DNA of 64,000 bases, from contig NC_073409.1 of the NCBI RefSeq assembly GCF_028641065.1, positions 20,274,001 through 20,338,000 of the forward strand. Reading direction: 5' to 3'. The notes under the pieces are model-generated. The model was not told where the DNA came from and did no database searches. It worked only from the letters and a program-made list of their open reading frames with translations. Source of the stretch: Leucoraja erinacea. Its lineage: Eukaryota. The translations under genes and the position numbers were made by a program. Below are positions 844 to 55,201 of the stretch, piece after piece. Each line of letters begins with the position of its first letter. The stretch's first letter is position 1.

Positions 844-1758
844 GTATGTAAATTGAAAACACTTCCAAATTCTCCACCGTCTCTGTGTTGTAACAATGCA
901 TGCTTTCTAGTTACAGTTCCGGCAACGAATAGCAATATTTAATTTTCTTTTTATCCTGAACAAACTTGCCGAGAGCTTATTTTTTTTCAGACTCGATATT
1001 ATCTAAACACATATATTTTGTATCCTCCATACACACACATTTCTACTCCCCGGATTTCACTCAATAGTCAATAAAATCCAATATTCCATTCCTGGCCCAC
1101 TTGACTGTGTTTTTACTTTTAAGCTTTAAACTGAAGCCCATGTTTTGTCTGAAGAAGTGTCTCGACCTGTTCCTTCTCTCCAGAGATCTTGCCTGGCCCG
1201 CTGAGACACTCCAGCTTTTTGTGTCTATCCCATGTTTTGTTGCGGGCTTCACATACACACTTGGGTTTGTTGCAGTGTTCGCCTGATCTCCGATGAAGAA
1301 TGAGAGCCGTTTTAACGATCCCGATTAGGGTAATGCTGCTGTAAACTAGCTTCACCGCTAAACCACTTCATCCTACCGTGCTGAGTCCAGGCGCCAGCTC
1401 TCACACACCTTCGCATTGGCCACAACGCCACACTCAAGCACAGACTCCAATGTTACAGTTCCCTAATCCCGTACAACCTGTTTCCTTGATATCCGTCCCC
1501 TTTGATACCTCAATTTTCACTGCTTACCCTTCCATCATTACTTTTCTCAGTCTAAAGAAGGGTCTCGACCGGAAACGTCCCCCATTCCTTCTCTCCAGAG
1601 ATGCTGCCCGTCTTGCTGAGTTACTCAAGCATGTTGTGTCTGTCTTCATCGTAAAATCCACAAACAGGGCAGTCCCATTGTTTCTGCCTGCGCCGGCCCC
1701 ACACATCTCATCAACAAATTCCTCAATTCAGGGGCGGTACGGTGATGCATGCCTTATT

Positions 1759-7120: not shown

Positions 7121-7923
7121 GTGAGTAATGCAGGTGTGTCCCATTCTCACCCTGAAATGGACAACAATTACAGGACATCCCAAATCAGCAAAGAACCTGT
7201 TGGCCATCACAGGTCATTCTGGTGGAAGATCTGTTTCTCTGATCATTCCGCTACGACATTTGCATCTACAAAGTTACAATTTACCATTCCACCATTGCGT
7301 GTGACACTGCTCTGTGTGTTGCAAGGTCTTGTTCCTTGAACCAGTAGAACCTGCTGTATCTGTTGTTCCATATTCCTGTTCCAACCTATCCCTCTGGTTG
7401 ATTGGGTTATTCCTGCTTCCAAATCATGTTTACAAAGGGGGACCGGTGCGGGGGTCGGGGGGGTGGACTTTAGTTTTAGAATACTCTGCCCAGGGAATAA
7501 CCCTGTGTTTGTTTGTTTGTTGTATATTATGAAGGCGTTGTGCACACGGCAGCCAATCAACAGTCGCTAGTCATTTTCTTTATTTGCACTTTAATTTCAG
7601 GTTTTTGCGTACCTTGCGTGTTGTGACTGTTGGCAGACCAATTTCCCTCCGGCGATGAATAACACGTTATTGTATCGTACCGTACATGTTGAGTAGGAAG
7701 GGACTGCAGATGCTGGAGGTAGGAACAAAATGTTGGAGTAACTTAGCGGGTCAGGCAGCATTCCTGGAGAAAAAGGATGGGTCACATTTCTGGGCGGAAC
7801 AAGTCTGAAGAAGAGTTCTAACCCAAAACATCACCTATTCTTTTTCTCCAGAGATACTGCCCAACTCGCTCAGCATTTTATGTCCATCTTTGGTATAAAG
7901 AAGGGTTGCGTCCTGAAGCGTTA

Positions 7924-8417
7924 AGGGCCTGTCCCACCAGCATGCGATTGCATGTGTCTAGCGCGACCAAACATGGTCGCTTGAGGCGTACGGCCTCGCG
8001 GGGCCGGTCCCACTTTGTGCGGGGCTGGTCCCGACATCATACTCACCAATGAGCTGGGCAGGAGGCGGGCCGACTGAATTTGGACGTCGCACGGTGTCGG
8101 GCGGTGACGTCATTGCGCAACGCCACGCGCTAGTAGTACGCCATCAAGACGCTGCGTATGACGTCAAGACGCTGTGTACGCCCATCAATGCGTTGCGTGC
8201 GGCCTCAATGCGGCTGCAGGCCAGCAGTCCGTTGTCGCGCGGGATTTTCGAACAGTGCAAGATTTTTGGAGCCCTGCGCAATGTCGGGACCAGTCCCGCA
8301 CAACTCCATACGCCTCCGCCGATCAAAGTGGGACCGGCCCCGCGAGGCCGTACGCCTCAAGCGACCACGTTTGGTCGCGCTAGACGCATGCTATCGCATG
8401 CTGGTGGGACAGGCCCT
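7924..8417. mobile_element. PIF/Harbinger-type MITE
   Basis: Long TIRs starting AGGGCCTGTCCCACCAGCATGCG; TTA on both sides. Confidence 0.8.
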
Positions 8418-8949
8418 TTACCTATTCTTTTTCTCCAGAGATGCTGTCTGACCCGCTGAGTTTCTCCATGTATTTGTGTCGATCTTTATATCTTGAGTCA
8501 ACTATATTTAAGTTTTTAGACTTTAGCAATACAATGTGGAAACAGGCCCTTCAGCCCACTGAGTCCAGGCTGACCAATGATCCCCTTACACTTGCACTAT
8601 CCACACATTGCAATTTACAGAAGCCAATTAACCTACAAACCTGCACATTTGGAATGTGGGAGGAAACTGGAGCACCTGGAGCAAACCCACACAATCATGG
8701 GGAGAAGGTACAAATTCCGGACAGACAGCACCGGTCATCAGGATTGAACCCAGGTCTCTGGCACTGAGACAGCAACTCTACCGCTGAGTCACCTCACTCT
8801 CAGTAATGTTTCTACTGTACTGTAAACCTCCAGTGGAAAAGATCCACTTTTCAACTGATTGAAATGGAGCAAAGCGATTGTTCATTTTTGCGCCTGAGAT
8901 CAGATCCTCCTCAACATATTGGCCACAGAGATCATCAATGGGTACGTAT

Positions 8950-10075: not shown

Positions 10076-10559
10076 TTTGGCCCTCAGAGTCCATGCCAAC
10101 CATCGATCGCATGCTAGTTCTGTATGGTCTCAATTTCCCATCCACTCTCTCCACACTTGAGGCAATATACAGAGGCCAATTAAACTACAACCCTGCATGT
10201 GTTTGGGATGTGGGAGGAAACTGGTGGCGGACTAACTCATCGGGTCAGGCAGCATCGATGGTGAACGTGAACAGGTTATGTTTTGGATGTCAACGGGTTA
10301 TGGGGCGACGGCAGGAGAATGGGGTTGAGAGAGAAAGATAGATTAGCAATGATAGAATGGTGGAGTAGATTTGATGGGCTGAATGGCCTAATTCTGCCCC
10401 AATAATTTATGAACATTGAATCTATCCCTGAAGAGATGAGTTACCTCTCTAAGGTGCTCCAGCACTTTGTGTCTTTATTCTCCTTTTGCCAATGTTTGTC
10501 ACTTACCAACATTTCTGGTCAATTCTACCACAGGATCAGTGTGATCATCTTTCCTCAAC

Positions 10560-12173
10560 ATGGGTGGTCTTGGATGGAGAAGCAGATCAAATGTCATATT
10601 TATTCTCGGTATCATCTTCGCCCTGTCTTGTCCAATTACCCAAGCAGCTAGAATATTGGTCGTGCCAGTTGATGGAAGTCACTGGATCAATATGAAAATT
10701 CTAATGGAAGAGCTGAACCTTCGTGGCCACAACATGACTGTGCTTTGTTACTCCGCAAACTGGTACATCAAAGAGAGACCCGATCTGTATCAAACCATCA
10801 CAGTTCAAGCACAAGAAAACATTGAAGCAGCTTCAAGGAAAGAAGTGATGGAAACATTTGTGCAAATGTCACTGGACAGGTTACAGAATGGTCACACACT
10901 ATGGGGCAACATAATGTTACAAATTCGAATGCTTATGTTTAAGTACAATTTCCATAGAATTTATCAAAATTTCAACATTGCGATTTTTGAAAACAAAACC
11001 TTGTTGAATCAATTTGAAAATGCAAACTTTGACCTAATACTCACAGATCCTATATTTGGTACTGGGCCAATGCTTGCGTATTATTTAAAAGTGCCGCTGG
11101 TGTACAACATACGATGGCAGATCAATGGGGAAGCCCATTTTCTCACTGCCCCGTCACCACTTTCCTACATCCCACTTCCTGGCTCACATCTCACAGACAA
11201 AATGGATTTTCTCCAAAGAACAAAAAATGTCATTCACAGTCTCTTTCACCACTTGATTTCTGAATTTATGATGTATCCACTTTATAATGAAATCTGCCAT
11301 CGGTATCTGGGACCAGACACGGACATCAAGTCGATTCTCCTCAGAGCTGATGTGTGGCTGATGAGGGTGGATTTTGTGTTTGAATTCCCAAGACCCACCA
11401 TGCCAAACATTGTGTACATCGGAGGCTTCCAGTGTAAACCAGCACAGCCTCTGGCAGCAGAGTTTGAGGAGTTTGCCCAAAGCTCACGGAAACATGGACT
11501 TGTTGTAATGTCATTGGGTGCCATTGTCGACTCTTTACCAATGGAGATTACAATGAAAATAGCAGAAGCTTTATCTCAAATCCCCCAGAAGGTTATCTGG
11601 AGATATGATGGTGAGACCCCTCCCAATATAGGGAATAATACACTGTTGGCAAAATGGATCCCTCAGAACGACCTGCTGGGTCACCCCAACACACGAGCCT
11701 TTGTTTCACACGGAGGCACCAATGGGATTTATGAAGCCATCTACCATGGGGTGCCAGTGGTCGGCATGCCTCTGCTTTTTGACCAGTTTGACAATTTACT
11801 CAAGCTCGAATCCCGAGGAACAGCAAAAGTGATCAACATTGCAACGATGCACTCCACAGATCTGTTGCAGGCACTCAACGAGGTGATAAACGACGCATCT
11901 TATGGGGACAACATGAAGAGACTCTCCGCTCTTCATCGGGACCAGCCAGAGTCGCCAATGGAGAGAGCCGTTTTCTGGGTTGAGTACGTTGCCCGACACA
12001 AAGGAGCAGGGCATTTGCGCTCAGAATCCCACCGACTCCCCTGGTACGCTTACTATTGTGTAGATGTGATGATCTTTCTGTTGTCTGTGTTACTCCTGCT
12101 CACTGTGTTGGTGGTTGGAACACTGAAGAAACTTTGTCGTATTGCAATGAAGAAAAAGCAAAAAATTCATTAA
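10560..12173 (+). CDS. UDP-glucuronosyltransferase, single coding exon (UGT5-like), copy A1, 537 aa
   Basis: Uninterrupted ORF with signal peptide, catalytic-His motif VPVDGSHW, FEFPRPTMPN, UGT signature WIPQNDLLGHPNTRAFVSHGGTNGIYEAIYHGVPVVGMPLLFDQ, C-terminal TM helix and KxKxx ER-retrieval end (KQKIH). Splice acceptor ...taccacAG at 10533, 26 nt before the ATG. Confidence 0.96.
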   Translation: MGGLGWRSRSNVIFILGIIFALSCPITQAARILVVPVDGSHWINMKILMEELNLRGHNMTVLCYSANWYIKERPDLYQTITVQAQENIEAASRKEVMETFVQMSLDRLQNGHTLWGNIMLQIRMLMFKYNFHRIYQNFNIAIFENKTLLNQFENANFDLILTDPIFGTGPMLAYYLKVPLVYNIRWQINGEAHFLTAPSPLSYIPLPGSHLTDKMDFLQRTKNVIHSLFHHLISEFMMYPLYNEICHRYLGPDTDIKSILLRADVWLMRVDFVFEFPRPTMPNIVYIGGFQCKPAQPLAAEFEEFAQSSRKHGLVVMSLGAIVDSLPMEITMKIAEALSQIPQKVIWRYDGETPPNIGNNTLLAKWIPQNDLLGHPNTRAFVSHGGTNGIYEAIYHGVPVVGMPLLFDQFDNLLKLESRGTAKVINIATMHSTDLLQALNEVINDASYGDNMKRLSALHRDQPESPMERAVFWVEYVARHKGAGHLRSESHRLPWYAYYCVDVMIFLLSVLLLLTVLVVGTLKKLCRIAMKKKQKIH

Positions 12174-15150: not shown

Positions 15151-15935
15151 CAGTGAGAGTTACTGACCGACATCCAGTATAAACCCACTGACTTCTTTAC
15201 TTCGGTTTCGTTTCCATTCGGTTATTTGGCTTCCACTGCTTTGCTTCGGCCTCTCATCCTTCAACGCCACGTCCACACACGGTTAAACATGGAACAGTAC
15301 AGCCCAGGAACAGGCACTTCAGTGCACAATGTCTTTGCAGAACATGTTAACAAAATAACATAATCTCCTCTCCCTTATAAATGAAGCACCATTGAACTAT
15401 TCACGCACACCAACTTTCCCACAATCTCTGCATATCCATGTGATTATTAAAAAACCTCTTAAATGTTACTATCATAAGAACCACCACCAACACCCACCAC
15501 CAAAGATCCTAGAGGAGCAAGATAGACCACTCCTTCGAAATCCAATGGACTGGCGTGTAGTACGTGACGGAACGTCACGGCCGCCATTTTTCAATGCGAC
15601 ACGCGACTTCCGGTATGCCACCCGCTGTGATCCAAAGCAAAGATTATAGAGCTCCGCTATAATCTTTGATCCAAAGCAAAGATCCTCGAGTATCTTGTAG
15701 CGGGAACAGCCCCCTCCTTTGCGTAGTTTCCCTTGCATTGTATTGCTTTAACACACACTGCACAAAATTAAATTTAACGTATACATATTATATATATTTA
15801 TATGAATGTGTGTCTGTGGGTGAGAGGCAAGTTAGAGATAGTTAAGTTTATTCTCATGGATCAGAAGCAACTTTGATTTAAATAATCACTATTAATTTAT
15901 TTGTCTTGTAAGATGATATACATAAACCATAAAGG

Positions 15936-18203
15936 NNNNNNNNNNNNNNNNNNNNNNNNNNNNNNNNNNNNNNNNNNNNNNNNNNNNNNNNNNNNNNNNN
16001 NNNNNNNNNNNNNNNNNNNNNNNNNNNNNNNNNNNNNNNNNNNNNNNNNNNNNNNNNNNNNNNNNNNNNNNNNNNNCATATGGATACATTTNNNNNNNNN
16101 NNNNNNNNNNNNNNNNNNNNNNNNNNNNNNNNNNNNNNNNNNNNNNNNNNNNNNNNNNNNNNNNNNNNNNNNNNNNNNNNNNNNNNNNNNNNNNNNNNNN
16201 NNNNNNNNNNNNNNNNNNNNGTAGAGGAACCAACGAGAGAGCAGGCTATTTTAGACTGGGTATTGAGTAATGAGGAAGGGTTAGTTAGCAATCTTGTTGT
16301 ACGTGCCCCCTTGGGCAAGAGTGACCATAATATGGTTGAGTTCTTCATTAGGCAGGCAGTGACTAGTGGGGTACCGCAAGGCTCAGTGCTGGGACCCCAG
16401 CTATTTACAATATATATTAATGATCTGGATGAGGGAATTGAAGGCAATATCTCCGAGTTTGCGGATGACACTAAGCTGGGGGGCAGTGTTAGCTGTGAGG
16501 AGGATGCTAGGAGACTGCAAGGTGACTTGGATAGGCTGGGTGAGTGGGCAAATGTTTGGCAGATGCAGTATAATGTGGATAAATGTGAGGTTATCCATTT
16601 TGGTGGCAAAAACAGGAAAGCAGACTATTATCTAAATGGCGGCCGACTAGGAAAAGGGGAGATGCAGCGAGACCTGGGTGTCATGGTACACCAGTCATTG
16701 AAAGTAGGCATGCAGGTGCAGCAGGCAGTGAAGAAAGCGAATGGTATGTTAGCTTTCATAGCGAAAGGATTTGAGTATAGGAGCAGGGAGTTTCTACTGC
16801 AGTTGTACAGTGTCTTGGTGAGACCACACCTGGAGTATTGCGTACAGTTTTGGTCTCCAAATCTGAGGAAGGACATTATTGCCATAGAGGGAGTGCAGAG
16901 AAGGTTCACCAGACTGATTCCTGGGATGTCAGGACTGTCTTATGAAGAAAGACTGGATACACTTGGTTTATACTCTCTAGAATTTAGGAGATTGAGTGGG
17001 GATCTTATAGAAACTTACAAAATTCTTAAGGGGTTGGACAGACTAGATGCAGGAAGATTGCTCCCGATGTTGGGGAAGTCCAGGACAAGGGGTCACAGCT
17101 TAAGGATAAGGGGGAAATCCTTTAAAACCGAGATGAGAAGAACCTTTTTCACACAGAGAGTGGTGAATCTCTGGAACTCTCTGCCGCAGAGGGTAGTCGA
17201 GGCCAGTTCATTGGCTATATTAAAGAGGGAGTTAGATGTGGCCCTTGTGGCTAAGGGGATCAGAGGGTATGGAGAGAAGGCAGGTACGGGATACTGAGTT
17301 GGATGATCAGCCATGATCATATTGAATGGCGGTGCAGGCTTGAAGGGCCGAATGGCCTACTCCTGCACCTAATTTCTATGTTTCTATGTTTCTATTATTT
17401 TCCAACGATCAATAGATTTACGATCAGTTCCTGTGGATTGGAGGATAGCTAATGCTATCCCACTTTTCAAGAAAGGAGCGAGAGAGAAAACGGGGAATTA
17501 CAGACCAGTTAGCCTGACTTTGGTGGTGTGAAAGATGCTGGGGTCAATTATTAAAGATGTAATAATGGGGCATTTGGATAGCAGTAAAAGGATTAGTCCA
17601 AGTCAACATGGATTTATGATTTTACAATGCATTTAAGCCTCTCCCATTTTTATGAGATGAATTCCTGGAATATGTAGGAAGTTTATTGTAACCTAGTGCT
17701 ACTTGCCTGAACAATGGATGATATATCACTTAAATGCAATTGTTTTCAGTTGTGTGGAGAGACCTGTATATTGAAAATGCGTTTTGCCTCTAATATGTCA
17801 ATTTACCTTAAATGTAGAAGAGCTTATTAAAATCTTCTTACAAAGACCATTAAGTATTTTCTATCTATCCTCTTTTGGACCCAAGGCATAGCAGAGCTGC
17901 CAACTCTCACGAAGAGGTANNNNNNNNNNNNNNNNNNNNNNNNNNNNNNNNNNNNNNNNNNNNNNNNNNNNNNNNNNNNNNNNNNNNNNNNNNNNNNNNN
18001 NNNNNNNNNNNNNNNNNNNNNNNNNNNNNNNNNNNNNNNNNNNNNNNNNNNNNNNNNNNNNNNNNNNNNNNNNNNNNNNNNNNNNNNNNNNNNNNNNNNN
18101 NNNNNNNNNNNNNNNNNNNNNNNNNNNNNNNNNNNNNNNNNNNNNNNNNNNNNNNNNNNNNNNNNNNNNNNNNNNNNNNNNNNNNNNNNNNNNNNNNNNN
18201 NNN
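15936..18203. other. Region containing three assembly gaps (15936-16076, 16092-16220, 17920-18203)
   Basis: Runs of N. Confidence 0.99.
16221..17395 (+). mobile_element. CR1 LINE 3' part (APE fragment joined directly to RT)
   Basis: FADDTKL, CR1 tail; adjacent to N gaps. Confidence 0.85.
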
Positions 18204-20649
18204 AGAGGGGGAGAGGGGGGGAGGGGAGAAAGGGGAGAGGGAGAAGGGGAGAAGAGGAAGAGGGAGAGTGGAACGATAGCACATTATAACGTGCAGCCGT
18301 CCCATTCCGACCAAAGATTATAGAGCAGAGCTCCACTAGTATCTTTGATTGCGGCCGCCGCCACCGAACCCCCCGACCCACCATTGCACCCAAAGATGAT
18401 AGAGCAGAGTTATATAATATTTGATTGCACCCTTCTTCACGGCGGGCTTGTGATCTTTGCTTGTGATGTCTTGTATGTATGTGAGTGTTGTTTGCTATGT
18501 CCCTATGTTTGAGGAATATAATGGGTAACAGCCGCCCATTCTCAGACTTGAATCCGAGCTCGAAAAATCTCCTGGTCACTGGACCTAATGTGTCCGCGGG
18601 CCATATTGTGGAGACCAATCGCTTACAAAACAAAACCAAAAACGTACAGAAGTGTTAAAATTGTCTTTATTATTGTGGTGAGTAAAGAACTATTAAAAAT
18701 AAGTCTAATAACTTTCTAATGTACCGACAAACCTAGTTTCCCAATGGCCGTTGATGGGAGAACAGAAAATAACATTTTCACGACAGAATATCGACTGAAA
18801 ATAATAAAAATATTTTCTCACCTTTCTTTTTTATTGGGGAACCTAAAGAATGACAGGTCGGGTCGTTTAGATTTACGATTAGAATACTTGATAGCAGAGC
18901 AGTGAGATGGAATTTAGATAAGGACGCCATGACAGTGTGGGGGAAGCCCAATAAATGCCTCGAAAAATGGCGTCGACGATCACACACGTCATACTACGCG
19001 TTTTTCGAGGAGTGGTCTATCTTGCTCCTCTAGGATCTTTGCCCACCACTGTCTGTAACAAAACTGCACATCTATACAATTACTAAAACTCTCATATTGT
19101 CCTCTTCCGGTTTAGCATTGTTTTATAATTTGTGCAAAAATGGTAACATATCGCTTGGATTGTTTTGCCCCCGTACTCACCGTTCACCTCTGCTCCACGC
19201 GCACCAAGTTTTGTTCTGATCGGTGGAATATTACAAAAGTTATGAGGGTTTTAAAATCATGAGATCAGCAGATTGGTCTTCTCGCCTGTCAGTCGGCAGG
19301 AAGGTAACGCCCCTTCTGGCACCTGCTGTCAATCACCAGGGCGAGCAGAATAAAGCCCCGGTGGCTGGGCGTGAGTCCAGAAGTCGGGCGCGAGTCAGTC
19401 AGTCCAGAAGCCCAGAAGCCGTGAGTGTGAACCGAGTCCAGAGAGTGAGTGAGAGTCGAGTTCAACAGCCGTGAATGAGTGAACTGTGAGCCCAGAAGCC
19501 GTGACTGAGTGAACCAGAAGACGTGACTGAGTAAACTGTGAGTCCCAAAGCCACGACTGTGAACTGTGGGTTCAGAAGAGCGAGTGAGTGAACTGTGAGT
19601 CCAGAAGCCGCCCTGTGCGCGGAGGCGGCAGAGAGCGAGGAGCCTGCCCGATTGCAATAAACTCGAGATCCAAGGGAAGTCTGAGAGTGGGGGGATTGAT
19701 GGAGCCAGGCACTGGTGGGGCCGGGCGCTAGTGGGGCTCACCACCCCCACCACACTCCCCTCACAAACCCTCCCAGCAGTAGGCCACGACAGCGCTGCCA
19801 TCACCGGCCCCTGCCTGAACCTGTCCCCCTCCCCCGGCTACAGAACGCTCCTGCCAGCCCCTACCTGAAGCCTCCCTGTCCCCAGCTACAGGACTAGCCA
19901 AAGAATTCATTCAGTCCACAATGTCCATACTAGCCTCTGCAAACCAGTCCCTTCGGCCCACAACACCCATATTAGCAAGATCCCCCCAACTGGCCACCAT
20001 CTGAAGCCGTCCCCCTCCCCAGCTGCAGGACGCTCTCCCCTCCCCCACCAGCCCCTGACTGCCCCACCTGAAGCCGTGACCTGCCCAGGCTACAGGATGC
20101 TACCCCATCGGCCCACGACAGCCCCCACCTGAAGCCGACCCCCTCCCCTGGCTGCAGAACGCAACAAGAGACACAACAATAAAGAATGCACTTATTAAAT
20201 CTCCTCTTTAACGTTAAAATTGTTGTCATATTTTAAGTTATTCACATTTTAAGCTTTAATAAATCCTTTTCCCACTTGCTGTGCCCATCAGCTGCACCTG
20301 CGCAGTAATACCTGCGTGTTCTACGTCACAGTGGGAACCCAATGGAAGGGAATGGCTGCTCCGCTGGAGAAACGCTAAGAGAGGGGGGGGGGGGGGGGGC
20401 GGGTGGTGGGTTGAGGGGGGGATGGAGTGAGTGCATGGGAGCGGGGGAATGGCAAGGGGAGGAGAGGGGGTGTGAGGGGAGGAGGGTGGATCAGGGGCGT
20501 CACACCGGGGATCCGTCAGCCATGCCCGTGCAGTTGGGAGCTATGCGTGAGTGGTGGAATATTGGAATTGGTGGAGAGATGGAATATTGCGTTAGGGGAC
20601 CAGGCCTCCCGTGTGAGAATGGAGTCCATCTTCAGTTAAAACAGTTTAT

Positions 20650-22000
20650 AGATTATCTGGTGATTTGTGCATGGGAGCTTGTGTGCGTTCCGCAGACAAC
20701 CAGACGGTAATAAATAAAACGTGCTTCTTGTCGATGGGGGTAGTGGGAGGAGATAAAATTGTTCATTGTCATCCACCAGGGAATGTGTGTGTGTCCCCAT
20801 GTTTTAGAAGCGATTTACTATGCCCCGAGCCGTCTGGCCCTGTGGCCGGGGTGGGGGGTGAATCACCCGGTGTGGGTGTCAGAATCCGGGGGATGGAGGT
20901 GTGGGGGGTCGTGGACAGGGGAATCACCTTGGTATGGGGGTAGGGGTCCAATGGCGGTGCATCGTGGTTAGTGACTCTGGGTGGGCGGAGGTGATTCTGT
21001 CTGTCCCACAATTGCCGACTACTTCAAGTAGCAAAATTTATGACAAACCATTTCTAATTCGTTCCATCCAATTTTTGCAATAGCCCCGCGTGTCTCAACC
21101 TGCCCAACCTCTTACCCAGTCCCAAGTGTCTCAACGCGGCTGCCTTCTTAACCAGTCCCAGGTATCTCAACCCGGCGGACTCTGTAATCGAGACCCGTGT
21201 ATCTCAACCTGGCAGACTCTAATAAAAAAAATTTAAAAGCAAAAAAACACACAATTGGTCTTACCATTGTCTGCATCTAAGAACCTCGGTGGGGAACCAA
21301 ATCAACTGGAGACGAAGGACCACAGATGTTCCCGGGGGTTTCTACGGGTGTCGGTCTTACAAGATAGAGCTCAGTTGTCTCCCTTCCAATCCCAGTAACA
21401 TCTGTAACCTCTTGCACTTTCAGCTGTTGATGGTGTCCCAGCGAGGCCTGCCAAAAAAGACCAATGTAAAGAGGTTACTTAAACAAACAGGTTCACTTCT
21501 TAATAAACAGACAACTCACAACACGGTTTGGTAGATCAATTCAAAATTTTACTAATTATCAGCAGGTGGAAGTGGCAAGGATAACCCCAGCTAATGGAGC
21601 AACACAGACCTTTGGCTGTCCTCTCTCCACTTCCCTGAACACAGAATTACATGGTATTATATACTATTATTTTGTCACCTAAGCACATTCTAAAGACATT
21701 AGTCATGGTCAGAGGTACAGAGCATACACATTACTACAGGGTGTGTCTGGGTTTGTCTCATCAATCATCAGTCGCATCAAAGGAATCTTGTCACGTGGTT
21801 CAAGGCACTTACAAATCAAAGGCATTGGATATTGGTACAAGGCACTTGCATATCAAAGTCATCAGTCACTGCATACCTCTCAAAGGCATCGGACATTGTC
21901 TCAATACCCCTTACTGGGATTAATCTGGGCTTCATCTCTCATAAATTGGTAGATGCATTTCAAAGTCATCGGTCATTATCTCAATACACAGCAACCTGGT
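20650..22000 (-). mobile_element. ERV-like LTR plus leader fragment
   Basis: PBS-like TGGTTCCCCACCGAGG (minus strand, 21284-21299), downstream donor AATG|GTAAG, short tandem leader repeats; LTR part matches 27200-27340 in reverse. Confidence 0.45.
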
Positions 22001-24375
22001 ATTTATATATAAATATATAAAATATAAGAGATTCACAAATGTATATTGCAGAAGTAAATTTGTCATCCTTGCCTCGTCTGATTTAGAGTTGACCACAGAC
22101 CAATCTGCTACAATGTGGTTGATTTTTGACTGCCCTCTCTACTCCTTTGTGTTAAACCACTCTGCAATGTTGGATACCTCCAACACATAGACTTCAATAG
22201 TTCACAAAGGGTTCTCACCATCATCGTTATAAGGGCGGATATCATTGGTAATAAAGGCAGGTTGAAAGTGCTGTGAGTGAGATAGCAGCCCACACAGAAT
22301 CACGGCTTTTCATCCATCTGCTCCTGATCTGAAGGACACTCTGGACACCAAATGCTCAGTGTTAAATCCTAGACTTAACAGACAAGAATCACGACACTGT
22401 TAATATGATTGCGAAGCTGATTATTTTGTGACTGGCTGCAACGTAATACGGTACAACACAAGAACGAGCCCCTTTGGCCCAAAATATCTGGGACGAATAT
22501 GATGCCAAAAAAATCTCTCGTCCACCTGCGAATGATCCATATCTTTCCATTCCCTGCATATCCATGTGCCTGCCTATCCAATATCCTCTTAAATGCCTCT
22601 ATAGTATCTGCCTCAATCACTAACCCAGGCACTCACCAGCCTCAGTGTAAAACAAGTTTCCTCCCACATCTCCTTTAAACCTTGCCCGTCTCACCTTCAC
22701 AGCTATTCATTCTCGTATATGATTGTGCCATCCTGGGAAGAATGTTCTAACTGTTTCTATCCCTCTCATAATTCGATATACTTCTATCAGGTCTCCCCTC
22801 AACCTACAACTTTCAGGAGAAAACAATCCAAGTGTGTCCAAACTTTCCCTGTAGCAAATACCCCATAATCCGGTGGATTCTGGTGAAGATTTAGGACTGA
22901 CATGAGGAAAAGCATTCTCATCAAGAGAGTTGTGAATCTGTGGGATTTTCTGCCACAGAAGACAGTGGAAGCCAATTAATTGGATGCATTCGAGTGAGTT
23001 GGATATAACTCTTAGGGCTAAATGAATCAAGGAATATAGGGTGAAAGCAGGAACGGGGTACTGATTCTGGTTGATCAGCCATGATCATATTCAATGGAGG
23101 TGCTGGCTCGACTATTTTCTATGTGTCTATGTTTCGAACCTCATCTGCACCATTTCCAAAGCGTCCACATCCTTCTTGTAATGGGCTTATCACAACACCA
23201 TACAACACTCCAAAAGCAGCCAAAGCAAAGGTTATCAAAGTTGCACCATGACACACTAAATCTTATTTTCAATATCCTGAAGGCAACCGTTCCAGTGCAC
23301 ATGCCGTGCACTTATTTTCTGTGAATCCTTTGCAATCGGTTTCAATGGAAAAAATGTCCCAGTTTTCTGTCAATATTTCAGAGAAGGCATAAGAAGGTAA
23401 AAGGTGAGTAACACAAACACGAGAACGGAACGAAGGGAAATAATTAACAGGGAGAAAGCAAACTAACAGGTTACTCGAGAGAAGGAAACACCCAGCGTAT
23501 TTGTACTTGGTAAAATAAAGTGTAATTGAAGGTTTACCAGATGAGCAAAATCTACTTCCAGTAAATTCAATTCTCTTCTTGACTATAACAACTGTACTGA
23601 ATATCTCCTTCATTGAGCAGAGTAGTTAATTATAAATAAATCATTTTATTAAACTAAGTTATTAGAATATTAAACAATTTCCACAGAGAAAATTCACTTC
23701 TGTAATTAGACACAAAATGTTGGAGTAACTCAGCGGGACAGGCACCATCTCTGCAGAGAAGGAATGGGTGACCTTTCGGGTCGAGACTCTTCTTCAGACG
23801 GCTGAAGATGGTCCGAAGCAAAGATCCTATAGCAGAGCGGTAGGATCTTTGGTCCGAAGAAGGGTCCGGACCCAAAAAGCCACCCGCTCCTTCTCTCGAG
23901 TGATGCTGCCTGTCCCGCTGAGTTGCTCCAGTTTTTCTTGTGTAAACCAGCATCTGTAGTTCCTTGCTACACATTCACCCGTTAGCCTGTGGCCACTATC
24001 TACCAACAAACTCCTGAGGTGTCAACTCTGTGGCACCTTTGCAAGAAACACACAGATGTAGGGGGAAGGGCAGTGGGCGGAGTTATTTGAAATAACTCGT
24101 CCATGCAACAATATTATCGGGTATTTCTCGGAATCTCGAGATAAACTGTTTGCGACTCAAAGCAGCGATGACTTAGAGGAAACAATCCAACTAGACTCGT
24201 CGTCAGGGACAACAGAAAGCGAGCAGGATTGTGAATAAAACAGTGAATAAGGATTAATATTATGCAGCGCTGTATTTTGGATCAGCCAGTTGAAAGGTGC
24301 CAAATAATTTTTCTTTGCGGTGAACTCAACGACCGGGAAGTTAATACTTTCTTTCAGATCAGCAAGTACCAGATA

Positions 24376-24770
24376 TAGGGTGATTTCACCAAATGTCAAA
24401 TGAGCGTAGATCCCCCCTCACGTGACCGAAAATTTTAACTGGAGGACATATGTCACTTCGGTACATGTTAGTGAATGGGGAAACACGCACTTTCCCACCC
24501 GTTAAAAACATGGAAAACGGCCGATTTTAGAGCTGAAATTTTCTGTGCTAGTCGGGGTGACCGTGAAGCACAGCGACCTACATTTTCAGGCAAATAAAAA
24601 GATAGAAAGTAAGGTAATTACAAGAGGGAACTGAAGGTGGAAAACAGCGGAAGTGAACAGCCGACATTTGCCGTGGAGATTTAAAGATCCAAAATATCGG
24701 GAATTATCGCGTTTGCTCGCTGAATTTCATCAAAAGTAAGGCATTATTAACTTCTAGTAAAATCTGCAAG
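24376..24770. mobile_element. DNA transposon end fragment
   Basis: Begins ATAGGGTGATTTCAC; reverse-complement similarity to 30270-30485; absent from unit 2 at about 54423. Confidence 0.55.
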
Positions 24771-24789
24771 AACAAAATATTTTTCTGCC

Positions 24790-25113
24790 CTTATTTCCAA
24801 AAACGCTCATAGGCATAAGCTCAGGGGTGACTGCGCCTTTGCAGTTGCAGCTCCTAGACTGTGGAACAGCATCCCTCTTCCCATCAGAACTGCCCCCTCC
24901 ATCGACTCTTTTAATTCGAGACTTATAACTCATCTTTACTCTCAAGCCTTTCTTGACGTCCTCTGAGGGAGGGCTATATGTATGTATTTATGTATGTACT
25001 TAATCTATGAACCACTGTTGTATAATGTTAGTACCTCCACCAATGTAAAGCACTTTGGTCAACGAGAGTTGTTTTTTAAATGTGCTATAGAAATAAAAGT
25101 GACTTGACTTGAC
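24790..25113 (+). mobile_element. L2-like LINE 3' end
   Basis: tgtaaagcactttg...tgtgctatagaaataaa followed by a (GACTT)n tail. Confidence 0.55.
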
Positions 25114-27006
25114 TTTACTAGATACAATCAGTTCAAACAAAGTACAATCAATAGAGCAAGGAGGAAGGTACATATGGCATAATATAGTTCTCAGCATTGT
25201 AACACATTAGCTCCATTGACAACGTCCAATGTTTACAACGTGTTGAGGTGAATCAGACCTCTGGCTTATGAAAGAACTGATCAGAAACCTGATAACAGAA
25301 GGGTGAAGTTGTTCCTGAGTCTGTTGGCACACGCTTTCAAACATCTGCACCTTCAGCCAGACAGAAGCTAAATTAAAGCTAATTAGATGCTAATTAAAAG
25401 TAAATAGAAGCTAATTAGCTAAACTAAACTAATCTTCGAGCTTGCAGGACGATGCTCTGCTCTAAGATATTTGGGACTGTGGACTTTGAACAATGGCGCC
25501 TAAAAAGGCGGTGCCTGCATGTGTAATATATGCAAAAAGAATGACACTGTCAGATGCATATGTGAAGATAGACACAAAGTGCTGGAGTAGCTCAGCGGGT
25601 CAGGCACCATCTCTGAAGGAAAAGGATGGATGAAGTTTTAAGCTGGAACCCTTCTTCAGACTCGGACTAATCATTCTGTTAAACCGAGACTATCATTCCA
25701 TCACTCCGTGTTACACCGCTCTGTGAATTCCAAAGTTTGCTCCATGACTGATTTAAAGACACGTCATGGAAACAGACCCCTCTGCCCATCAGGTCCATGC
25801 CGACTATAGATCACTGATTCACCGTAGTCCCATGGTATCACGTTTTTTTACATCCACTCCCAACACACTAAGGACAATTTTACAGAGGCCAATTATATTA
25901 CAAACCTGCACATGCTTGGAATGTAGGAGGAAACCGGAGCACCCGGGGAAAAACACTTGGTTACAGAGAGAACGTGCAAACTCTGCACAGACAACAACCC
26001 CGAGGTCAGGATCAAACTGGGGTGTCCAGTGCCTTGAGGCTGCTGCACTACAACTGCGCCTCTGTGCTGGCCATTCTGTTAGAACTTACTGCTGTTGGGT
26101 CTTCAGAGTCACAGCTTACTGATGCAACATTCCTTCTTGCACTGCCCTGTGTATTGCAAAACGTTGTTCCTTAAACAGAAGCTGCAGTTCCCTATTCCTG
26201 CTCAAACTTGTCACTCTTTGAACACTGGCCAAAAGCATGAACTAGAAACATTATGTGGTTGAGTGGAAAAACCTATTCCCGCTTCCAATTCATATTTGCA
26301 TGTCGTCCAAATTCAGCTGCGAGAATCTACCTAAACCTCACATTAGATTTTGTTTAGTTTATAGATACAGAGCAGAAACAGGCCCTTCAGCCCGCACCGA
26401 CCAGCGATCCCCGCACACTAACATTGTTCTAGACTAGGGACAATTTAGAATTTTTATTGACGGCTATTAACCTACAAGCCCTATGTCTTTGGAATGTGTT
26501 AGGAAACAGGAGCATCCAGAGAAAATCCACACAGGTCAAGTGGAGAGCATATCAAACCTATACAGACAGCACCCGCATTAAGGATTGTGCTCTGGCACTG
26601 TAAGGCAGCAACTCTACCGCTGTGCCACCGTTGTGCCATTCATATTTGCATGACGTCCAAATTGGAATATGAATGCACCTAATGCACGAGCTGCCAGAGC
26701 AAGTCGTTGAGGCAGGAACTTTCACAATGTAGAAGAAATAATTAGACAAGTACATGGATAGGACAGGTTTAGAGGGAGATGGGTCAAACGCAAGCAGCTG
26801 GGTCTGGTGTAGTTGGTCAGTGTGGGTAAGTTGAACCGAAGGTCCTGTTTCCACACTGTGACTCTATGACACACATTTGATTTGGTTAATGTAATGTCAA
26901 GAAAACACACAGCTGTTTCTAAATGTTGTTTTTTGCCAATGTGTGTTGCTTACTAACGTGTCTGGTCAATTCTGCAACAGGATCGGTGCTATTTTCTATT
27001 TCCAGC

Positions 27007-27090
27007 ATGGGTAATCCTGGATGGAAAGGCAGATTTGCATTTGTTCTTTGAATCACCATCACTTGTCTTGTCCAATTACCCGAGTAGCTG
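27007..27090 (+). pseudogene. Truncated 5' remnant of UGT type B (copy B1)
   Basis: ATG GGT AAT CCT GGA TGG... matches the start of B2 but has TGA at codon 15 and a 1-nt deletion; homology ends at about 27090 at an LTR-like fragment. TACTAAC (26951) and acceptor (26980) retained. Confidence 0.85.
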
Positions 27091-27345
27091 ATAAGGCTGA
27101 ATTATGTTAAAAATATAAGAAAATATTAAATGGATTCCTGGGCCAGTTTACGCCTTATATTTAGTCTCCAGTAGATTATTAAAGAAATGCATGTCTAGGC
27201 TTGCCTCAGGTTGCTGTGTATTGAGATCATGAATGACTATAACATTTATCTACCATTTGACGAGAAAGGAAGCCACATTGATCCCACTAAGGGGTATTGA
27301 CAAATGGCCGATGCCTTTAATATGTAAAGTCCTTGTACCATATGA
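27090..27345 (+). mobile_element. LTR fragment of the same family as 21300-22000, at the B1 breakpoint
   Basis: Starts with TG; caggttgctgtgtattgagat...taaggggtattga matches the reverse complement of 21890-21998. Confidence 0.6.
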
Positions 27346-27934
27346 CAAGATGCCTTTTCCACTCACAACCCCATTCACCTGCCTTCTTCCCAAATCCCCC
27401 GACACCCATAATAATCAAAAATCTGCCATTCTCCACCTTAAAAATATCCATTCAGATTAGAGAAATCAATATTAAGAGAAGGCGGCATGGTGGAGTAGCA
27501 GTAGAGTTGCTGCCTTACCGCGCCAGAGACTTGGGGTTGATACTGACTATGGGTGCTGTGTGTGTGGATGTTGTGCGCTCTCCCTGTGACCGCATGGGAT
27601 TTCTCCAGGTGCTCCGGTTTTCTCCTACATTCCAAAGATCTACAGGTGTGGAAGCTAATTGGCTTGGGTGAAAATTGGCATTTGTCCTTCGTGTGTGGGA
27701 TAGTGTTAATGTGGACAGATCGCTGGTTGCGTGAACTCAGTGGACCGAAGGACCTGTTTCCGCACGGTACCTCTAAACTAAACTAAAATACTCACACTGC
27801 TGGGATTGTAAACTGCCCAATGTTTGGCTTGTCTGCAAGCTTACTAATCAACCCATCAAATCATTTATGAACTCAAATAATTTATATATCCAAATCATTT
27901 ATATATTCACAAACAGTAAAGGTCCCAGCACTGA

Positions 27935-28472
27935 GTCGGTATGTCAAGGAGGACTTTCTCTAACTTCTACAGGTGCAAAATAGAGAGCATGCTGAACGCT
28001 GTATCGTGAGTTGGTTCCGGAACTTGAGCGCCCAGGAGCGGAAAAGACTACAAAAAGTGGTAAACACTGCCCAGTCCATCATCGGCTCGGACCTCCCTAC
28101 CATCAAGGGGATCTATCGCAATCACTGCCTCAAAAAAGCTGGACCCACACCATCTTGGCCACACACTCATCTCCCTGCTACCTTGAGATAGAAGATACAG
28201 GAGCCTGAATACTGCAATGTCCAGGTTCAGGAATAGCTATTTCCCCACAGCCATCAGGCTATTAAACTCAACTCAAACAAAACTCTGAACATTAATAGCC
28301 CATTATCTGTTATATTTATTCATATGTGTATATATTTATATAATGGTATATGGACACACTGATCTGTTCTGTATTCATGCCTACTATATTCTGTTGTGCT
28401 GAAGCAAAGCAAGAATTACATTGTCCTATCTGAGACACATGACAATAAACTCTCTTGAATCTTGAATCTTGA
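27935..28472 (+). mobile_element. Rex1/Babar-like LINE 3' fragment (tail also at 1-135; related fragment about 56700-57110)
   Basis: CIVSWF...LQKVVNTAQSIIG motif; (CTTGAAT)n tail. Confidence 0.65.
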
Positions 28473-28484
28473 TCCCTGAAAATG

Positions 28485-28771
28485 AACTTTCATACTTGCG
28501 GTTAGTTGTAGATACAGTTTGGGGGCGGGTACATTGGTGTTGTATTTGTCCGGAAGTCTTTTCCTGTGTTACGCGCGGGCAAGTGAGCAAGGTGTGAGGG
28601 GGCCGGAGTTTTGTTTTCTTGTGGGGACTGGAAGCGGTCGCAGAGTCACTGTAGGAGATTTTTTCATTGGTAATTCAGCAGCGGGTGAAGGCACTGCAGC
28701 CGCGGGTTCAAGTCCCATCGCAGTCACATCTTTCTGACATTCAGATTACATCGAATTCACTGATACCCAAG
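28485..28771 (+). promoter_or_regulatory. Putative promoter and non-coding first exon of UGT A2
   Basis: Near-identical to 556-843; donor GT at 28772. Confidence 0.6.
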
Positions 28772-29207
28772 GTATGTAAATTGAAAACATTTCCAAATTC
28801 TCCACCATCTCTGTGTTGTAACAATGCATGCTTTCTAGTTACAGTTTCGGCAACGAATAGCAATATTTAATTTTCTTTTTATCCTGAACAAACTTGCCGA
28901 GAGCTTTTTTTTTTTCAGACTCGATATTATCTAAACACATATATTTTGTATCCTCCATACACCCACATTTCTACTCCCCGGATTTCACTCAATAGTCAAT
29001 AAAATCCAATATTCCATTCCTGGCCCACTTGACTGTGTTTTTACTTTTAAGCTTTAAACTGAAGCCCATGTTTTGTCTGAAGAAGTGTCTCGACCTGTTC
29101 CTTCTCTCCAGAGATCTTGCCTGGCCCGCTGAGACACTCCAGCTTTTTGTGTCTATCCCATGTTTTGTTGCGGGTTTCACATACACACTTGGGTTTGTTG
29201 CAGTGTT

Positions 29208-29402
29208 TAAGAGGGAACTGCAGATGCTGGAGAATCGAAGGTTACACAAAAAAGCTGGAGAAACTCAGCGGGTGCAGCAGCATCTATGGAGCGAAGGAAA
29301 TAGGCGTCTGAAGAAGGGTTTCGGCCCGAAACGTTGCCTATTTCCTTCGCTCCATAGATGCTGCTGCACCCGCTGAGTTTCTCCAGCTTTTTTGTGTAAC
29401 CC
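29208..29402. mobile_element. Short Penelope-derived inverted-repeat insertion
   Basis: About 66-bp perfect inverted arms, 18-bp TSD TGGGTTTGTTGCAGTGTT; empty site at about 1262-1279. Confidence 0.85.
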
Positions 29403-29940
29403 TGGGTTTGTTGCAGTGTTCGCCTGATCTCCGATGAAGAATGAGAGCTGTTTTAACAATCCTGATTAGGGTAATGCTGCTGTAAACTAGCTTCACCGCT
29501 AAACCACCTCATCCTTCCGTGCTGAGTCCAGGCGCCAGCTCTCACACACCTTCGCATTGGGCATGACGCCACAGACTCAAGCACAGACTCCAATGTTACA
29601 GTTCCCTAATCCCGTACAACCTGTTTCCTTGATATCCGTCCCCTTTGATACCTCCATTTTCACTGCTTACCCTTCCATCATTACTTTTCTCAGTCTAAAG
29701 AAGGGTCTCGACCGGAAACGTCCCCCATTCCTTCTCTCCAGAGATGCTGCCCAAAGATCTTATAGCAGAGCAAGATCTTTGATGCTGCCCGTCCCGCTGA
29801 GTTACTCAAGCATTTTGTGTCTGTCTTCATCGTAAAATCCACAAACAGGGCAGTCCCATTGTTTCTGCCTGCGCCGGCCCCACACATCTCATCTCCAAAT
29901 TCCTCAATTCAGGGGCGGCACGGTGATGCATGCCTTATTT

Positions 29941-35547: not shown

Positions 35548-36465
35548 ACAGGGACCCGGGCTCAATCCTGACTACGGGTGCTGTTTGTACGTTCTCCCCC
35601 TGACCTGGGTTGGTTTTCCCCGCATGGTTTCTGGTTTCCTCCCACACGTGCAGGTTTGCAGGTTCATTGGCTTCTGCAAAGTGTGAATTGACCAGAGTGT
35701 GGAGGAGAGCGCTAGTGTACGGCGTGATCACTGGTCGGCGTGGCCTCGGTGGACTGATGGACCTGTTTCCACGCTGTCTCCCTTAAGTCCATTGGCACTC
35801 GCATGGATTACAGCTGTGCCTGTAATGTCAAACTATCCGTGAACCAGGCATACACTGGCACCATCCCCAACTCTTTCTCCACATTGACAACAGCATCGGG
35901 GCTGCCTCCTCCACCCATGCTGAACTCGACATGCTGACTGTCCCGCTGAGTTACTCCAGCATTTTGTGTCCATCTTCGGTGTAAACCAGCATCTGCAGTT
36001 CCTTCCTAACCCTATTTTCCACAACAGTTCTCAATCCGTGAACACGAATGTATTTACCGACCAAAAGCCAAGTCAGAGCAGAACACTGTGCTGTAGCTAA
36101 ATACATTTGAATGTTACAGGTGAGCAATACTGGGATGTGGGAGGAAACTGGTGGTGGACTAACTCATCGGGTCAGGCAGCATCGATGGTGAATGTGAACA
36201 GGTTATGTTTTGGATGTCAAGGGGTTATGGGGCGACGGCAGGAGAATGGGGTTGAGAGGGATGGATAGATTTTACTTCGGAGTCACATGAGTGACTACGT
36301 GAAGAACCCGCTCAGTGCGCAGGCGCGGCATTACGCCAGCAGTGCAACAGCGGCGGCAGCTGGAGTCAGGCTCTCCAGCTGCACTTTAAAACGGACCGTC
36401 AGGTAAGTATACGGTGCATTGGAATAACAGAGGAGAGTTGCAGTTGTGTTTGCTTTTCAGAAAAC

Positions 36466-37770
36466 ATGTCGACACAACGCAGAAAACTCTCAAAGAGAAC
36501 TGACCGCGCTTCAACTCCACCAGCGGGGCAGCAACCAGCGGCAGCGTCGCTCTCAGAGTGTTTCGCTATCCCCGAGACCGAGCCAAGCCCAGTCTCGCCA
36601 AAGCCTGCACGGCGGACTGGGAAAGCGGCCAGGAAGTCCAATCGGCCGGTCATCTCCGATTCGTCGGAGGGGGACATGTCTCCACCAAAGCGGAGGAGAG
36701 ACAGCCGCCTGAGCTGCATTCAGCAGCTCCTGGAGGAGATGATCCACCGGGAACAGCAGCGCTCCCGGGGAGAATGGACAGGTACCTCCTCCACAGTGTC
36801 TTGTGCACTGCCCTCTGCTCCCTCATTACTGGAGGCTAGCATTGGTGACCAGGGCAGGGCTGGTCTGGAACAGGGGCAGGCGGACGAACTCGGGAGTATG
36901 CCAGGGGTTCAGGAACATGAAGAGCTGTTGGGTGTGGTGGACCGCTTTGTAGCAACCCCACGGGCTGGAGCACCGCTGGAGCCAAGAATGGCAGCCAGCA
37001 TCAACCACCTATCCAATAAACCGTTACTGGATAAGGTGCTCGCCGAGGTGCTGGAACAACACACAGCACCAGAAAACTGTGAGGCCCTCAAAGTAAAAAG
37101 TGTCAACAGCCAAATCTGGGGGCACGTGGGGGCTCACATCCGGACCCAAGAACTCAAGCTACAGCGAATCCTAAGGCTCCTGACGTCGGCCATCACAGCC
37201 TTTGCTCGTTCCGTGGCGACAACGGAGATGAATACATGCCAGCAGGATGTGCTGGCATTAATGTGTACCACACAATTCAAGATCAACAATCTCCGGAGGG
37301 AAATCATAAGACCTGCCCTCAATCCCAAATTTGCTGGCTTGTGTGAAGCCCCAGCTGCGGAGACGGACGCGCTGCTATTTGGGAAAGGTCTTAATAAAAA
37401 ACTGAAGGAGATGGAGGAAGCATCAAAAACCTTCGGCCTAATGAGGGCGGGCCCCGGGGCGAGCAAACCAAGACCTCCAATACCCAAGCGGCAACACCCC
37501 ACGGCATCCACCAGTCGACGTCCGGAATATGGGACTGGTGAACTGGTCCGCACATTATCCCCAAAGATCTTTTTTAGATCAGGGCCCGCAGCGGACCCCC
37601 TGGAAAATGCGCCTCCCCCCAACATCGCCAGCACGTCATCAGAACAGAACCTTCAGGAAAATGAAGAAACAGAATCGCCAATAACCATGGAGGTAGGTGG
37701 GTCTGGTTCCTACCAGCATATAGAGAATAAGGGTGCTTTACTAACAGGGGGGGAGATTACAATTGTTTAA
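36466..37770 (+). CDS. DIRS ORF1 (gag-like), probably frameshifted near the 3' end
   Basis: First ORF after the left ITR; RREIIRPALN and LLFG motifs like other DIRS gags. Confidence 0.7.
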   Translation: MSTQRRKLSKRTDRASTPPAGQQPAAASLSECFAIPETEPSPVSPKPARRTGKAARKSNRPVISDSSEGDMSPPKRRRDSRLSCIQQLLEEMIHREQQRSRGEWTGTSSTVSCALPSAPSLLEASIGDQGRAGLEQGQADELGSMPGVQEHEELLGVVDRFVATPRAGAPLEPRMAASINHLSNKPLLDKVLAEVLEQHTAPENCEALKVKSVNSQIWGHVGAHIRTQELKLQRILRLLTSAITAFARSVATTEMNTCQQDVLALMCTTQFKINNLRREIIRPALNPKFAGLCEAPAAETDALLFGKGLNKKLKEMEEASKTFGLMRAGPGASKPRPPIPKRQHPTASTSRRPEYGTGELVRTLSPKIFFRSGPAADPLENAPPPNIASTSSEQNLQENEETESPITMEVGGSGSYQHIENKGALLTGGEITIV

Positions 37771-53413: not shown

Positions 53414-55201
53414 GTATGAACATACTGAGGCACATGCAAATGGCCTCAAGAGCCAGCAGTTGGCAGAATATCCGCCCGCTACTAATGCCAGCAAGGGAAC
53501 AGCGCTATCAGGGAGAAACCAGCCGCCGAATCCTCTCTTCAGGTAAGACCAGAAGAAGGAAGCAAAACATGCGGGGATTGTTGGTCGGTACGGACTCGGT
53601 GGGCCTTTTTTCCGGAAGGTTTACCAGATGAGTATAATCTACTTCCAGTAAATTCAAATCTCTTCTTGACTATAACGACTGTATTGAATATCTCCTCCAT
53701 TGAGCTGAGCAGTTAATTATAAATAACAAATTTTATTAAACAAAGTTATTAGAATATTAAACTATTTCCAAGAAGAAAATTCACTTCTGTAAATAGGCAC
53801 AAAATGCTGGAGTAACTCAGCGGGACAGGCACCATATCTGCAGAGAAGGAATGGGTGACCTTTAGGGTCGAGACCCATCTTCAGACGGCTGAAGATGGTC
53901 TGAAGAAGGGTCTTGACGCAAAAAGTCACCCACTCCTCTCGAGTGATGAAGCCTGTCACGCTGAGTTTTTTTTGTGTCTATCGTCGGTGTAAACCAGCAT
54001 CTGCAGTTCCCTCCTACACATTCACCCCTGTAAGTCTGTGGCCAATATCTACCAACAAACTCCTGAGATGTCAACTCAGTGGCGCCTTTGCAAGAAACAC
54101 ACAGATGTAGGGGGAAGGGCAGTGGGCAGAGTTATTTGAAAGTTCGTCCATGCAACAATATTATCGGGTATTTCTCGGAATCTCGAGTTATAAACTGTTT
54201 GCGACTAAAAGCAGCGATGACTCAGAGGAAACAAGCCAACTAGACTCGTCGTCAGGGGCAACAGAAAGCGAGCACGGATGTGAATAAAACAGTGGTAAGG
54301 ATAATATTATGCAGCGCTGTATTTTGGATCAGCCAGTTGAAAGGTGCCAAAGAATGTTTCTTTGCGGTGAAATCAATGACCGGGAAGTTAATACCTTCTC
54401 TCAGATCAGTTAGTACCAGATATTTGTTGCAGATGACAAAATGTCACGTCCACTACCTTATATTATTAAATAAACGGTTTAGCTTCGAGATCTTTCTTGA
54501 GAATGTAGGAGAACTGCTCGTGAAAAATACTAGATATTGTTGTTTGCAGCATTGGGAGTTAGATCAGCATCTGAGGCTGAGGTGTTGTCCCGCTGGAGGC
54601 AATATTAAACAATTCTAAATTCGCAAGGAAGGTCCACACACAAAACGTCACCTATCTCTGTCCTCCACAGATGCTGCCTAACTTGCTGAATCACTCCAGT
54701 ACTTGGTGTTCTACATAAGCAGTTCCTTCAGTCTCCACAATTCTTCCATTTTTTGCTGAAGATTTGCAGGCAACTTCCCTTTCTAACCTCACTGGCCTGC
54801 GGTTGTAAAGGCTCTGTTTCATCATTTATCACGATTAAAAGTGCATCTTGTGTATTCTTCGGCAGAACTGGGAAAGAGAGCTTTCTTCTGTGTTCAAGAA
54901 GGAACTGCAGATGCTGGAAAATCGAAGGTACACAAAAAAAGCTGGAGAAACTCAGTGGGTGCAGCAGCATCTATGGAGCGAAGGAAATAGGCAACGTTTC
55001 GGGCCGAAACCCTTCTTCAGACTGTCTCGTTCAGTATCACACATAGTGTGTCGCAATGTAGGCAGTGGCGCAGCGGTAGAGTTGCTGCCTCACAGCGCCA
55101 AGATCCTGGGTGCGATCCTGTCTATGGGTGCTGTCCTTACAATTTGTACATTCTCCCTATGACCACGTGGGGTTTCTCCTGGTGTTCCAGTTTTCTCCCA
55201 C

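Follow-up and report, generated by a model that had tools for sequence, protein, structure and literature searches.

We found that five short inserts in a 64,000-nucleotide stretch of Leucoraja erinacea DNA (the whole of which is called the window below) are most likely fused tips of a CAAAGAT-ended cut-and-paste transposon family, probably germline excision scars left by a P-type transposase that cut deeper than the enzyme of the fly; we give this reading a probability of about 0.68. In the preliminary description of the window, inserts of 31, 36, 33, 33 and 30 bp had been placed between 8-bp TSDs, each being taken as a left and a right transposon end fused together. When we re-read the sequence, all five were present at these positions, with these lengths and TSDs (Table 1), and each is made of one tip of 15-20 nt and one of 10-18 nt. 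The TSD is perfect at four of the five inserts, that of insert 2 having 2 mismatches in 8. A strict TSD and tip pattern matches five times in the window; in 200 Markov-simulated windows it averages 0.01 matches and never exceeds 1. The inserts had also been called palindromes, which is a loose term: the two inverted tips are indeed present but the perfect stems measure just 12, 7, 4, 11 and 10 bp.

Table 1. Coordinates of the inserts, of their host element and of related features in the window
Feature	Position	Strand	Description
Insert 1	15638..15668	.	31 bp; 15-nt left and 18-nt right tip, GC in common (15+18-2); perfect TSD ATCCAAAG at 15630-15637 and 15669-15676; 137 bp inward of the host left end
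Insert 2	18312..18347	.	36 bp; 20-nt left and 18-nt right tip, GC in common (20+18-2); TSD decayed
Insert 3	18391..18423	.	33 bp; 19-20-nt left tip, short filler, right tip of about 11 nt with one change; perfect TSD ATTGCACC
Insert 4	23819..23851	.	33 bp; 20-nt left tip followed by 2 other letters and by 11 nt of the host right end; perfect TSD GTCCGAAG
Insert 5	29752..29781	.	30 bp; 20+10 joined bluntly, or 25-nt left tip via AAGAT; perfect TSD ATGCTGCC
Sixth candidate scar	18455..18459	.	5 nt of right tip in perfect TSD CTTGTGAT (18447-18454 and 18460-18467)
CAAAGAT-starting remnant	15677..15697	+	21 nt; abuts the insert 1 TSD; no TSD of its own recognised
Non-autonomous host element	15501..19041	.	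34-bp perfect TIRs (15501-15534 and 19008-19041); perfect 8-bp TSD CCCACCAC
LINE piece inserted in host	16351..17395	+	96% identity with 46731-47775, where the ORF contains an RT domain
Empty target of insert 5	1601..1608	.	Block 96.8% identical, gap-free
Empty target of insert 4	53898..53905	.	One target mismatch; block 90.8% identical, gap-free
Three paralogous single-ORF UGT genes	10545-12173, 42215-43843, 59133-60199		Third broken and deleted relative to the other two

The five inserts differ from one another, with pairwise edit distances of 5-9. One arm of each stops at a GAG(C) motif, at nt 18 or 20 from the tip, and there are indeed two tip types, with GAGC at nt 18, as in the host TIR, or at nt 20. 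GC microhomology often stands at the joint between the tips. The first 15 nt are identical in inserts 1 and 2, and the lengths of 31 and 36 bp are set by which of the two GAGC motifs was joined; the pair reads as the same two tip kinds, joined at the self-complementary GC of either motif. The right 11 nt of insert 4 are identical to the right end of the host element. In insert 5, nt 21-25 match the AAGAT that comes directly after GAGC in the host TIR, so that this insert can be read also as a 25-nt arm with a 5-nt microhomology, which counts against a strict ceiling of 20 nt. In all four informative cases (inserts 3, 4 and 5 and a form from run X4 described below), the 20-nt tip type is at the side from which the TSD reads AT or GT first, a possible orientation bias with too few cases for a test; the target of insert 2 is symmetric. 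With a possible preference for promoters in mind, we looked at CpG o/e, which around the inserts ranges from 0.61 to 1.06, while the window has a median of 0.48 and a 90th percentile of 0.81; only insert 1 stands out.

Two remnants had been missed. The sixth candidate scar (Table 1) amounts to an 8-nt tip if the GAT common to tip and TSD is counted, and a 7-mer tip with a perfect TSD has a null expectation of 0.005 per window. The remnant next to insert 1 is possibly an older nested scar. A 49-nt TSD-flanked stretch at 19546, one of 6 distinct matches of a loose scan with a null mean of 0.3, lacks a second tip and was discarded as a chance match.

The insert ends had been likened to those of the element at 15501-19041, and this likeness is borne out: the host TIR starts CAAAG and three inserts are nested in the element, of which 554 bases read N. 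These three of the five inserts lie within 5.5% of the window (clustering p=0.0016). The LINE piece in the host is presumably of CR1 type, and the right flank of the host, 19055-19300, is another high-copy repeat. Within the window there is no long element with the 20-nt tip type.

Sequencing runs were aligned to positions 18204-19300 at 80% likeness: contigs of runs X1, X4 and X7, from organisms A, B and C, and the RNA reads of run X22. This comparison covers the region of inserts 2 and 3, and inserts 1, 4 and 5 lie outside it. The evidence from reads consists of the best 15 of 41 joints, the best 12 of 31 between-letter rows and the best 24 of 1031 loose ends; joints at low likeness may stem from repeats. 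We observed that the right part of the host belongs to a many-copy family, since at least 23 X7 contigs continue into unlike flanks at the TIR tip; the summed depth is thousands of times that of a locus-specific X1 contig (16.9), a ratio that is not a copy number. Among the best 15 of 41 joints, X4 and X7 have one from 18311 to 18424 with 24 related letters. It corresponds to a family copy without inserts 2 and 3, so that both are secondary additions. Record 1 of X1 is a family copy with insert 2, an X1 contig that spans 18309-18451 differs in 11 letters and has 8 gap letters, and in X1 and X4 there is a copy that lacks sequence between the two inserts. Since inserts 2 and 3 are common to diverged copies, they are likely old passengers; they appear to have been inherited with the host family and not to be new arrivals in this copy. 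The nesting of three inserts therefore stands as to position, all three being inside the host, but at least two of them look like old passengers of a high-copy family, and the clustering would then record arrivals in the lineage of the host and not in this copy.

The contigs also contain forms of their own. The CAAAGAT tip occurs in 3 of the best 12 (of 31) between-letter rows. In X4, a 27-nt two-tip insert is accompanied by a duplication of 18926-18933 (8 bp), and in X1 and X7 a 16-nt tip runs into the last 18 nt of the host, giving a 34-nt form (18+18-2) with host-type ends, the TSD of which is not visible. X7 copies keep 17-21 nt of the left tip of insert 2 and resume at 18444, which amounts to a one-sided deletion with its break at the same depth. 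With the sixth candidate scar and the read forms, the remnant lengths are 5, 27, 30, 31, 33, 33, 34 and 36.

The RNA reads led to two side observations, both among the best 24 of 1031 loose ends. Poly(T) ends of X22 stand at 18649/18650 (45 and 34 reads), 17 nt from a minus-strand AATAAA (18649-18671), so that a functional poly(A) site is likely provided by the right subterminal region of the family. In addition, 36 X22 reads end at 18786 in sequence that we take to be a template-switch adapter, so there may be a short RNA of about 140 nt.

Single-ORF UDP-glucuronosyltransferase (UGT) genes (Pfam UDPGT) form a tandem cluster in the window. Their best protein match, 92% identical, is named from Amblyraja radiata, and the next cartilaginous-fish matches are also from skates. 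The duplication is seen as collinear blocks offset by about 28-32 kb. The two empty paralogous sites reported for inserts 4 and 5 are real, with a single target copy in gap-free blocks that are collinear at an offset of 28-30 kb. Both inserts had been taken to be younger than the duplication; the two blocks differ in identity, so they may not date from one single duplication. Several other repeats lie in the window. At 36295-41511 there is a retroelement with gag-like, RT and tyrosine-recombinase ORFs, presumably DIRS-like, which another repeat interrupts near 38937-39900. Decayed LTR-retrotransposon-like ORFs, interrupted by a LINE piece, occupy 48600-53020 on the minus strand, and a 157-bp direct repeat (48309-48464 and 53244-53400, 97%) goes with this element. 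Two small inverted-repeat elements were also seen, at 7920-8421 (arms of 103 nt at 94%, ends unlike those of the host) and at 41710-42014 (arms of 79 nt at 100%, different ends), the latter just upstream of the second UGT ORF.

From the anatomy of the scars we infer a staggered cut, a repair route and an enzyme. A family element first inserted and made its 8-bp TSD, a step that is read directly at the inserts. The transposase would later have excised the element by a long staggered cut, so that some 20-21 nt of each end stayed on the chromosome as single-stranded tails. These would next have been trimmed during end joining and sealed, some at GC or another microhomology, some bluntly and some with filler, giving remnants of 5-36 bp. 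Scars inside a non-autonomous family member would finally have been copied along with it, as is partly seen for inserts 2 and 3. The scars themselves are predicted to be immobile. Retained ends of 15-18 nt had been expected from a 17-nt stagger, and this figure had to be given up since the tips reach 20-21 nt here. In the window inserts and the read forms, the arms end at 18-21 nt. This ceiling comes from a small sample, in which insert 5 is ambiguous as it may keep 25 nt. In the window and the read contigs, we saw no site with the long element in one copy and a scar in another.

An origin by aborted gap repair, which we judge unlikely, would give similar products: once a P or hAT enzyme had cut the element out, repair synthesis on the sister chromatid would copy a few bases of either end and break off, and joining would result in minimal internal-deletion derivatives. 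Interrupted gap repair is, according to excerpts of PMC3014272 and PMC1562414, a known source of deleted copies; moreover it accounts for the possible 25-nt arm of insert 5 and works with any superfamily that makes 8-bp TSDs. However, it predicts broad arm lengths, and no arm goes clearly past nt 20-21 in the five window inserts or in the listed read forms; with a hAT enzyme, the intact double TSD would also have to be rebuilt. Another route is nearly precise excision without any transposase, as described for Tn10 derivatives (second-hand, in an excerpt of PMC12524634): as the DNA replicates, the long TIRs pair with each other, and slippage from one short direct repeat to another removes what lies between. 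Insert 5 has exactly the form that slippage between two AAGAT repeats produces, but inserts 1 and 2 and the 34-nt read form are joined at only 2 nt, inserts 3 and 4 contain filler, and slippage gives no reason for a stop at nt 18-20 of a 34-bp TIR; this route is, to our mind, very improbable.

There is also little chance that the inserts are true micro-MITEs of 30-36 bp moving by themselves. Both tips and a TSD are present, as such elements would have them, and inserts 2 and 3 have a very high summed contig depth, but this depth is explained by carriage inside the host family: in the reads the two inserts are repeated together with host flanks, and data of this kind cannot show them free. MITEs are defined by homogeneous size and sequence (PMC3698922, in part), whereas all five inserts differ, the read forms differ again and the series goes down to 5 nt. 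Furthermore, the fly P element needs internal transposase-binding sites beyond the TIR (PMC7776569, legend of Fig. 4). The preference previously expressed for excision footprints over very small mobile elements is thus strengthened by the five distinct inserts, by the distinct forms added by the reads and by junction classes that match fly P repair products.

The earlier proposal of a P/THAP9-type identity for the putative scar-making enzyme appears plausible from the sequence features. A TSD of 8 bp is found at the five inserts, the sixth candidate scar, the host and the X4 form, P elements having 7-8 bp. The host TIR, 34 bp starting CAAAG, resembles P element TIRs of 27-32 bp (PMC3698922, in part) starting CA, and this start fits hAT elements also. 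The eight target sites have a common GT/AT-type motif. When they were scored with motifs taken from an excerpt of PMC3276498, a P target motif like GTCCGGAC reached 32 against a null of 15.3 over the 8 sites (0 of 20000 reaching it), and the hobo motif fits the same 8 sites equally well (24 against 11.7, 0 of 20000). The YARNG terminal motif is cited for P in an excerpt of one paper and for hAT in another; an 8-bp TSD together with a YARNG terminus, as in hAT elements, is what we find here. Target motif and terminal 5-mer were therefore rejected as discriminators, both fitting both superfamilies. A hAT footprint consists of flank deletions or palindromes, with no tips, whereas tips stand between intact TSDs here.

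The P superfamily is characterized by a THAP domain and a P-type RNase H/GTP-binding core in the transposase, with GTP as cofactor (PMC7776569, in part). No THAP, P or hAT Pfam domain was found in 18 six-frame translations of the non-LINE, non-N parts of the host, the same scan giving just 3 weak membrane-family matches below the cut-off. The best link to P would be the Izanagi element of medaka, whose TIR has an exact 9-nt core in common with the host TIR; such a core is reached by 25 of 20001 shuffles and 6 of 5000 window 34-mers, and it was noticed post hoc. This core, the scar anatomy and the 34-bp TIR would favour P, so that the scar family seems to work like P and is likely a member of it. 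The TIR and scar patterns had 0 matches in viral, metagenome and prokaryote genome contigs, which is expected for skate DNA and uninformative on the family. A fly P element was sought in viral contigs as the source of a transposase query; the matches at four loci end at or just past the 17-mer and were taken as chance.

A more specific proposal is that skate genomes preserve the fossil traces of a P-family transposase that was active in the germline and whose cut, more than 17 nt deep, is set by the GAG-rich TIR motif (18 or 20 nt by tip type) and not by a fixed distance. We advance it tentatively and find it rather doubtful. The 18-nt tips observed all end at GC joins, so that a fixed cut near 20-21 nt followed by trimming explains them equally well, and the data as a whole fit either cut equally well. 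If the motif did set the cut, Izanagi tails would measure about 25 nt.

An excerpt of PMC7776569 presents the 17-nt stagger as a feature that only P transposase has, and calls the order of its strand cleavage and the mechanism unknown. If the excision-scar reading is true, a vertebrate enzyme cuts about 20 nt inside its own ends. Natural scars would then show that vertebrate relatives cut like fly P and would give the depth of the cut without a purified enzyme. They would also record how end joining treats long 3' tails in the germline, and point to a vertebrate P enzyme that both inserts and excises. For annotation, such 30-bp palindromes would be exit scars, not micro-MITEs or regulatory hairpins.

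Known systems resemble the one described here to different degrees; the papers on them are cited from excerpts. hAT elements (Ac/Ds, hobo; PMC5873905, PMC3014272, PMC3276498) have, as here, 8-bp TSDs, a YARNG start and a similar target motif. However, Ac/Ds footprints are flank deletions and flank palindromes arising from hairpins, not transposon tips (PMC5873905), and hAT TIRs measure 12-16 bp among the Anolis table rows of PMC3014272, against 34 bp for the host TIR. Zebrafish Pdre2/zfTHAP9 (PMC10983969) is, like the putative family here, a vertebrate P-family system with 8-bp TSDs, and its excision activity was demonstrated; the enzyme is reported to excise, not to transpose. Its TIR, 13 bp starting CAT with sub-TIRs, is unlike the 34-bp CAAAG TIR of the host, and in S2 cells zfTHAP9 left larger flanking deletions, not neat scars, which counts against the scar reading (PMC10983969). 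Izanagi (PMC2820524) has, like the host, an 8-bp TSD (starting GT) and a CAA start, with a 27-bp TIR, in which the common core lies at nt 16-24, 7 nt deeper than in the host TIR (nt 9-17). It is a non-autonomous P-like element with a THAP remnant, which the scanned parts of the host lack, and no scars are described in the excerpted parts of PMC2820524. For skates and sharks, the literature searched, which covered few subscription papers or Repbase entries, held no report of P-type elements or excision scars.

The closest parallel is the fly P element, whose transposase duplicates 8 bp of target and cuts the two strands 17 nt apart (PMC7776569), so that the donor keeps 17-nt 3' tails (PMC2895639). 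Its junctions (PMC2895639, Table 1) consist of near-full tails joined at 2-nt microhomology, of a full tail with a short stub, of joints with filler, and of few-base stubs, some joined via the TSD. As here, both 8-bp TSDs are kept, tips of the two ends are fused, 2-nt joins, filler and short stubs occur, and the target motif is GT..AC-like. The fly tips measure 17 nt, against 20-21 nt here, where two tip types exist (18 and 20 nt to GAGC), and the fly enzyme is identified, whereas the putative scars are fixed germline fossils in a vertebrate. Every junction class of fly P nevertheless has a counterpart in the window or the read forms, which fits end joining of long P-type donor tails of about 20-21 nt.
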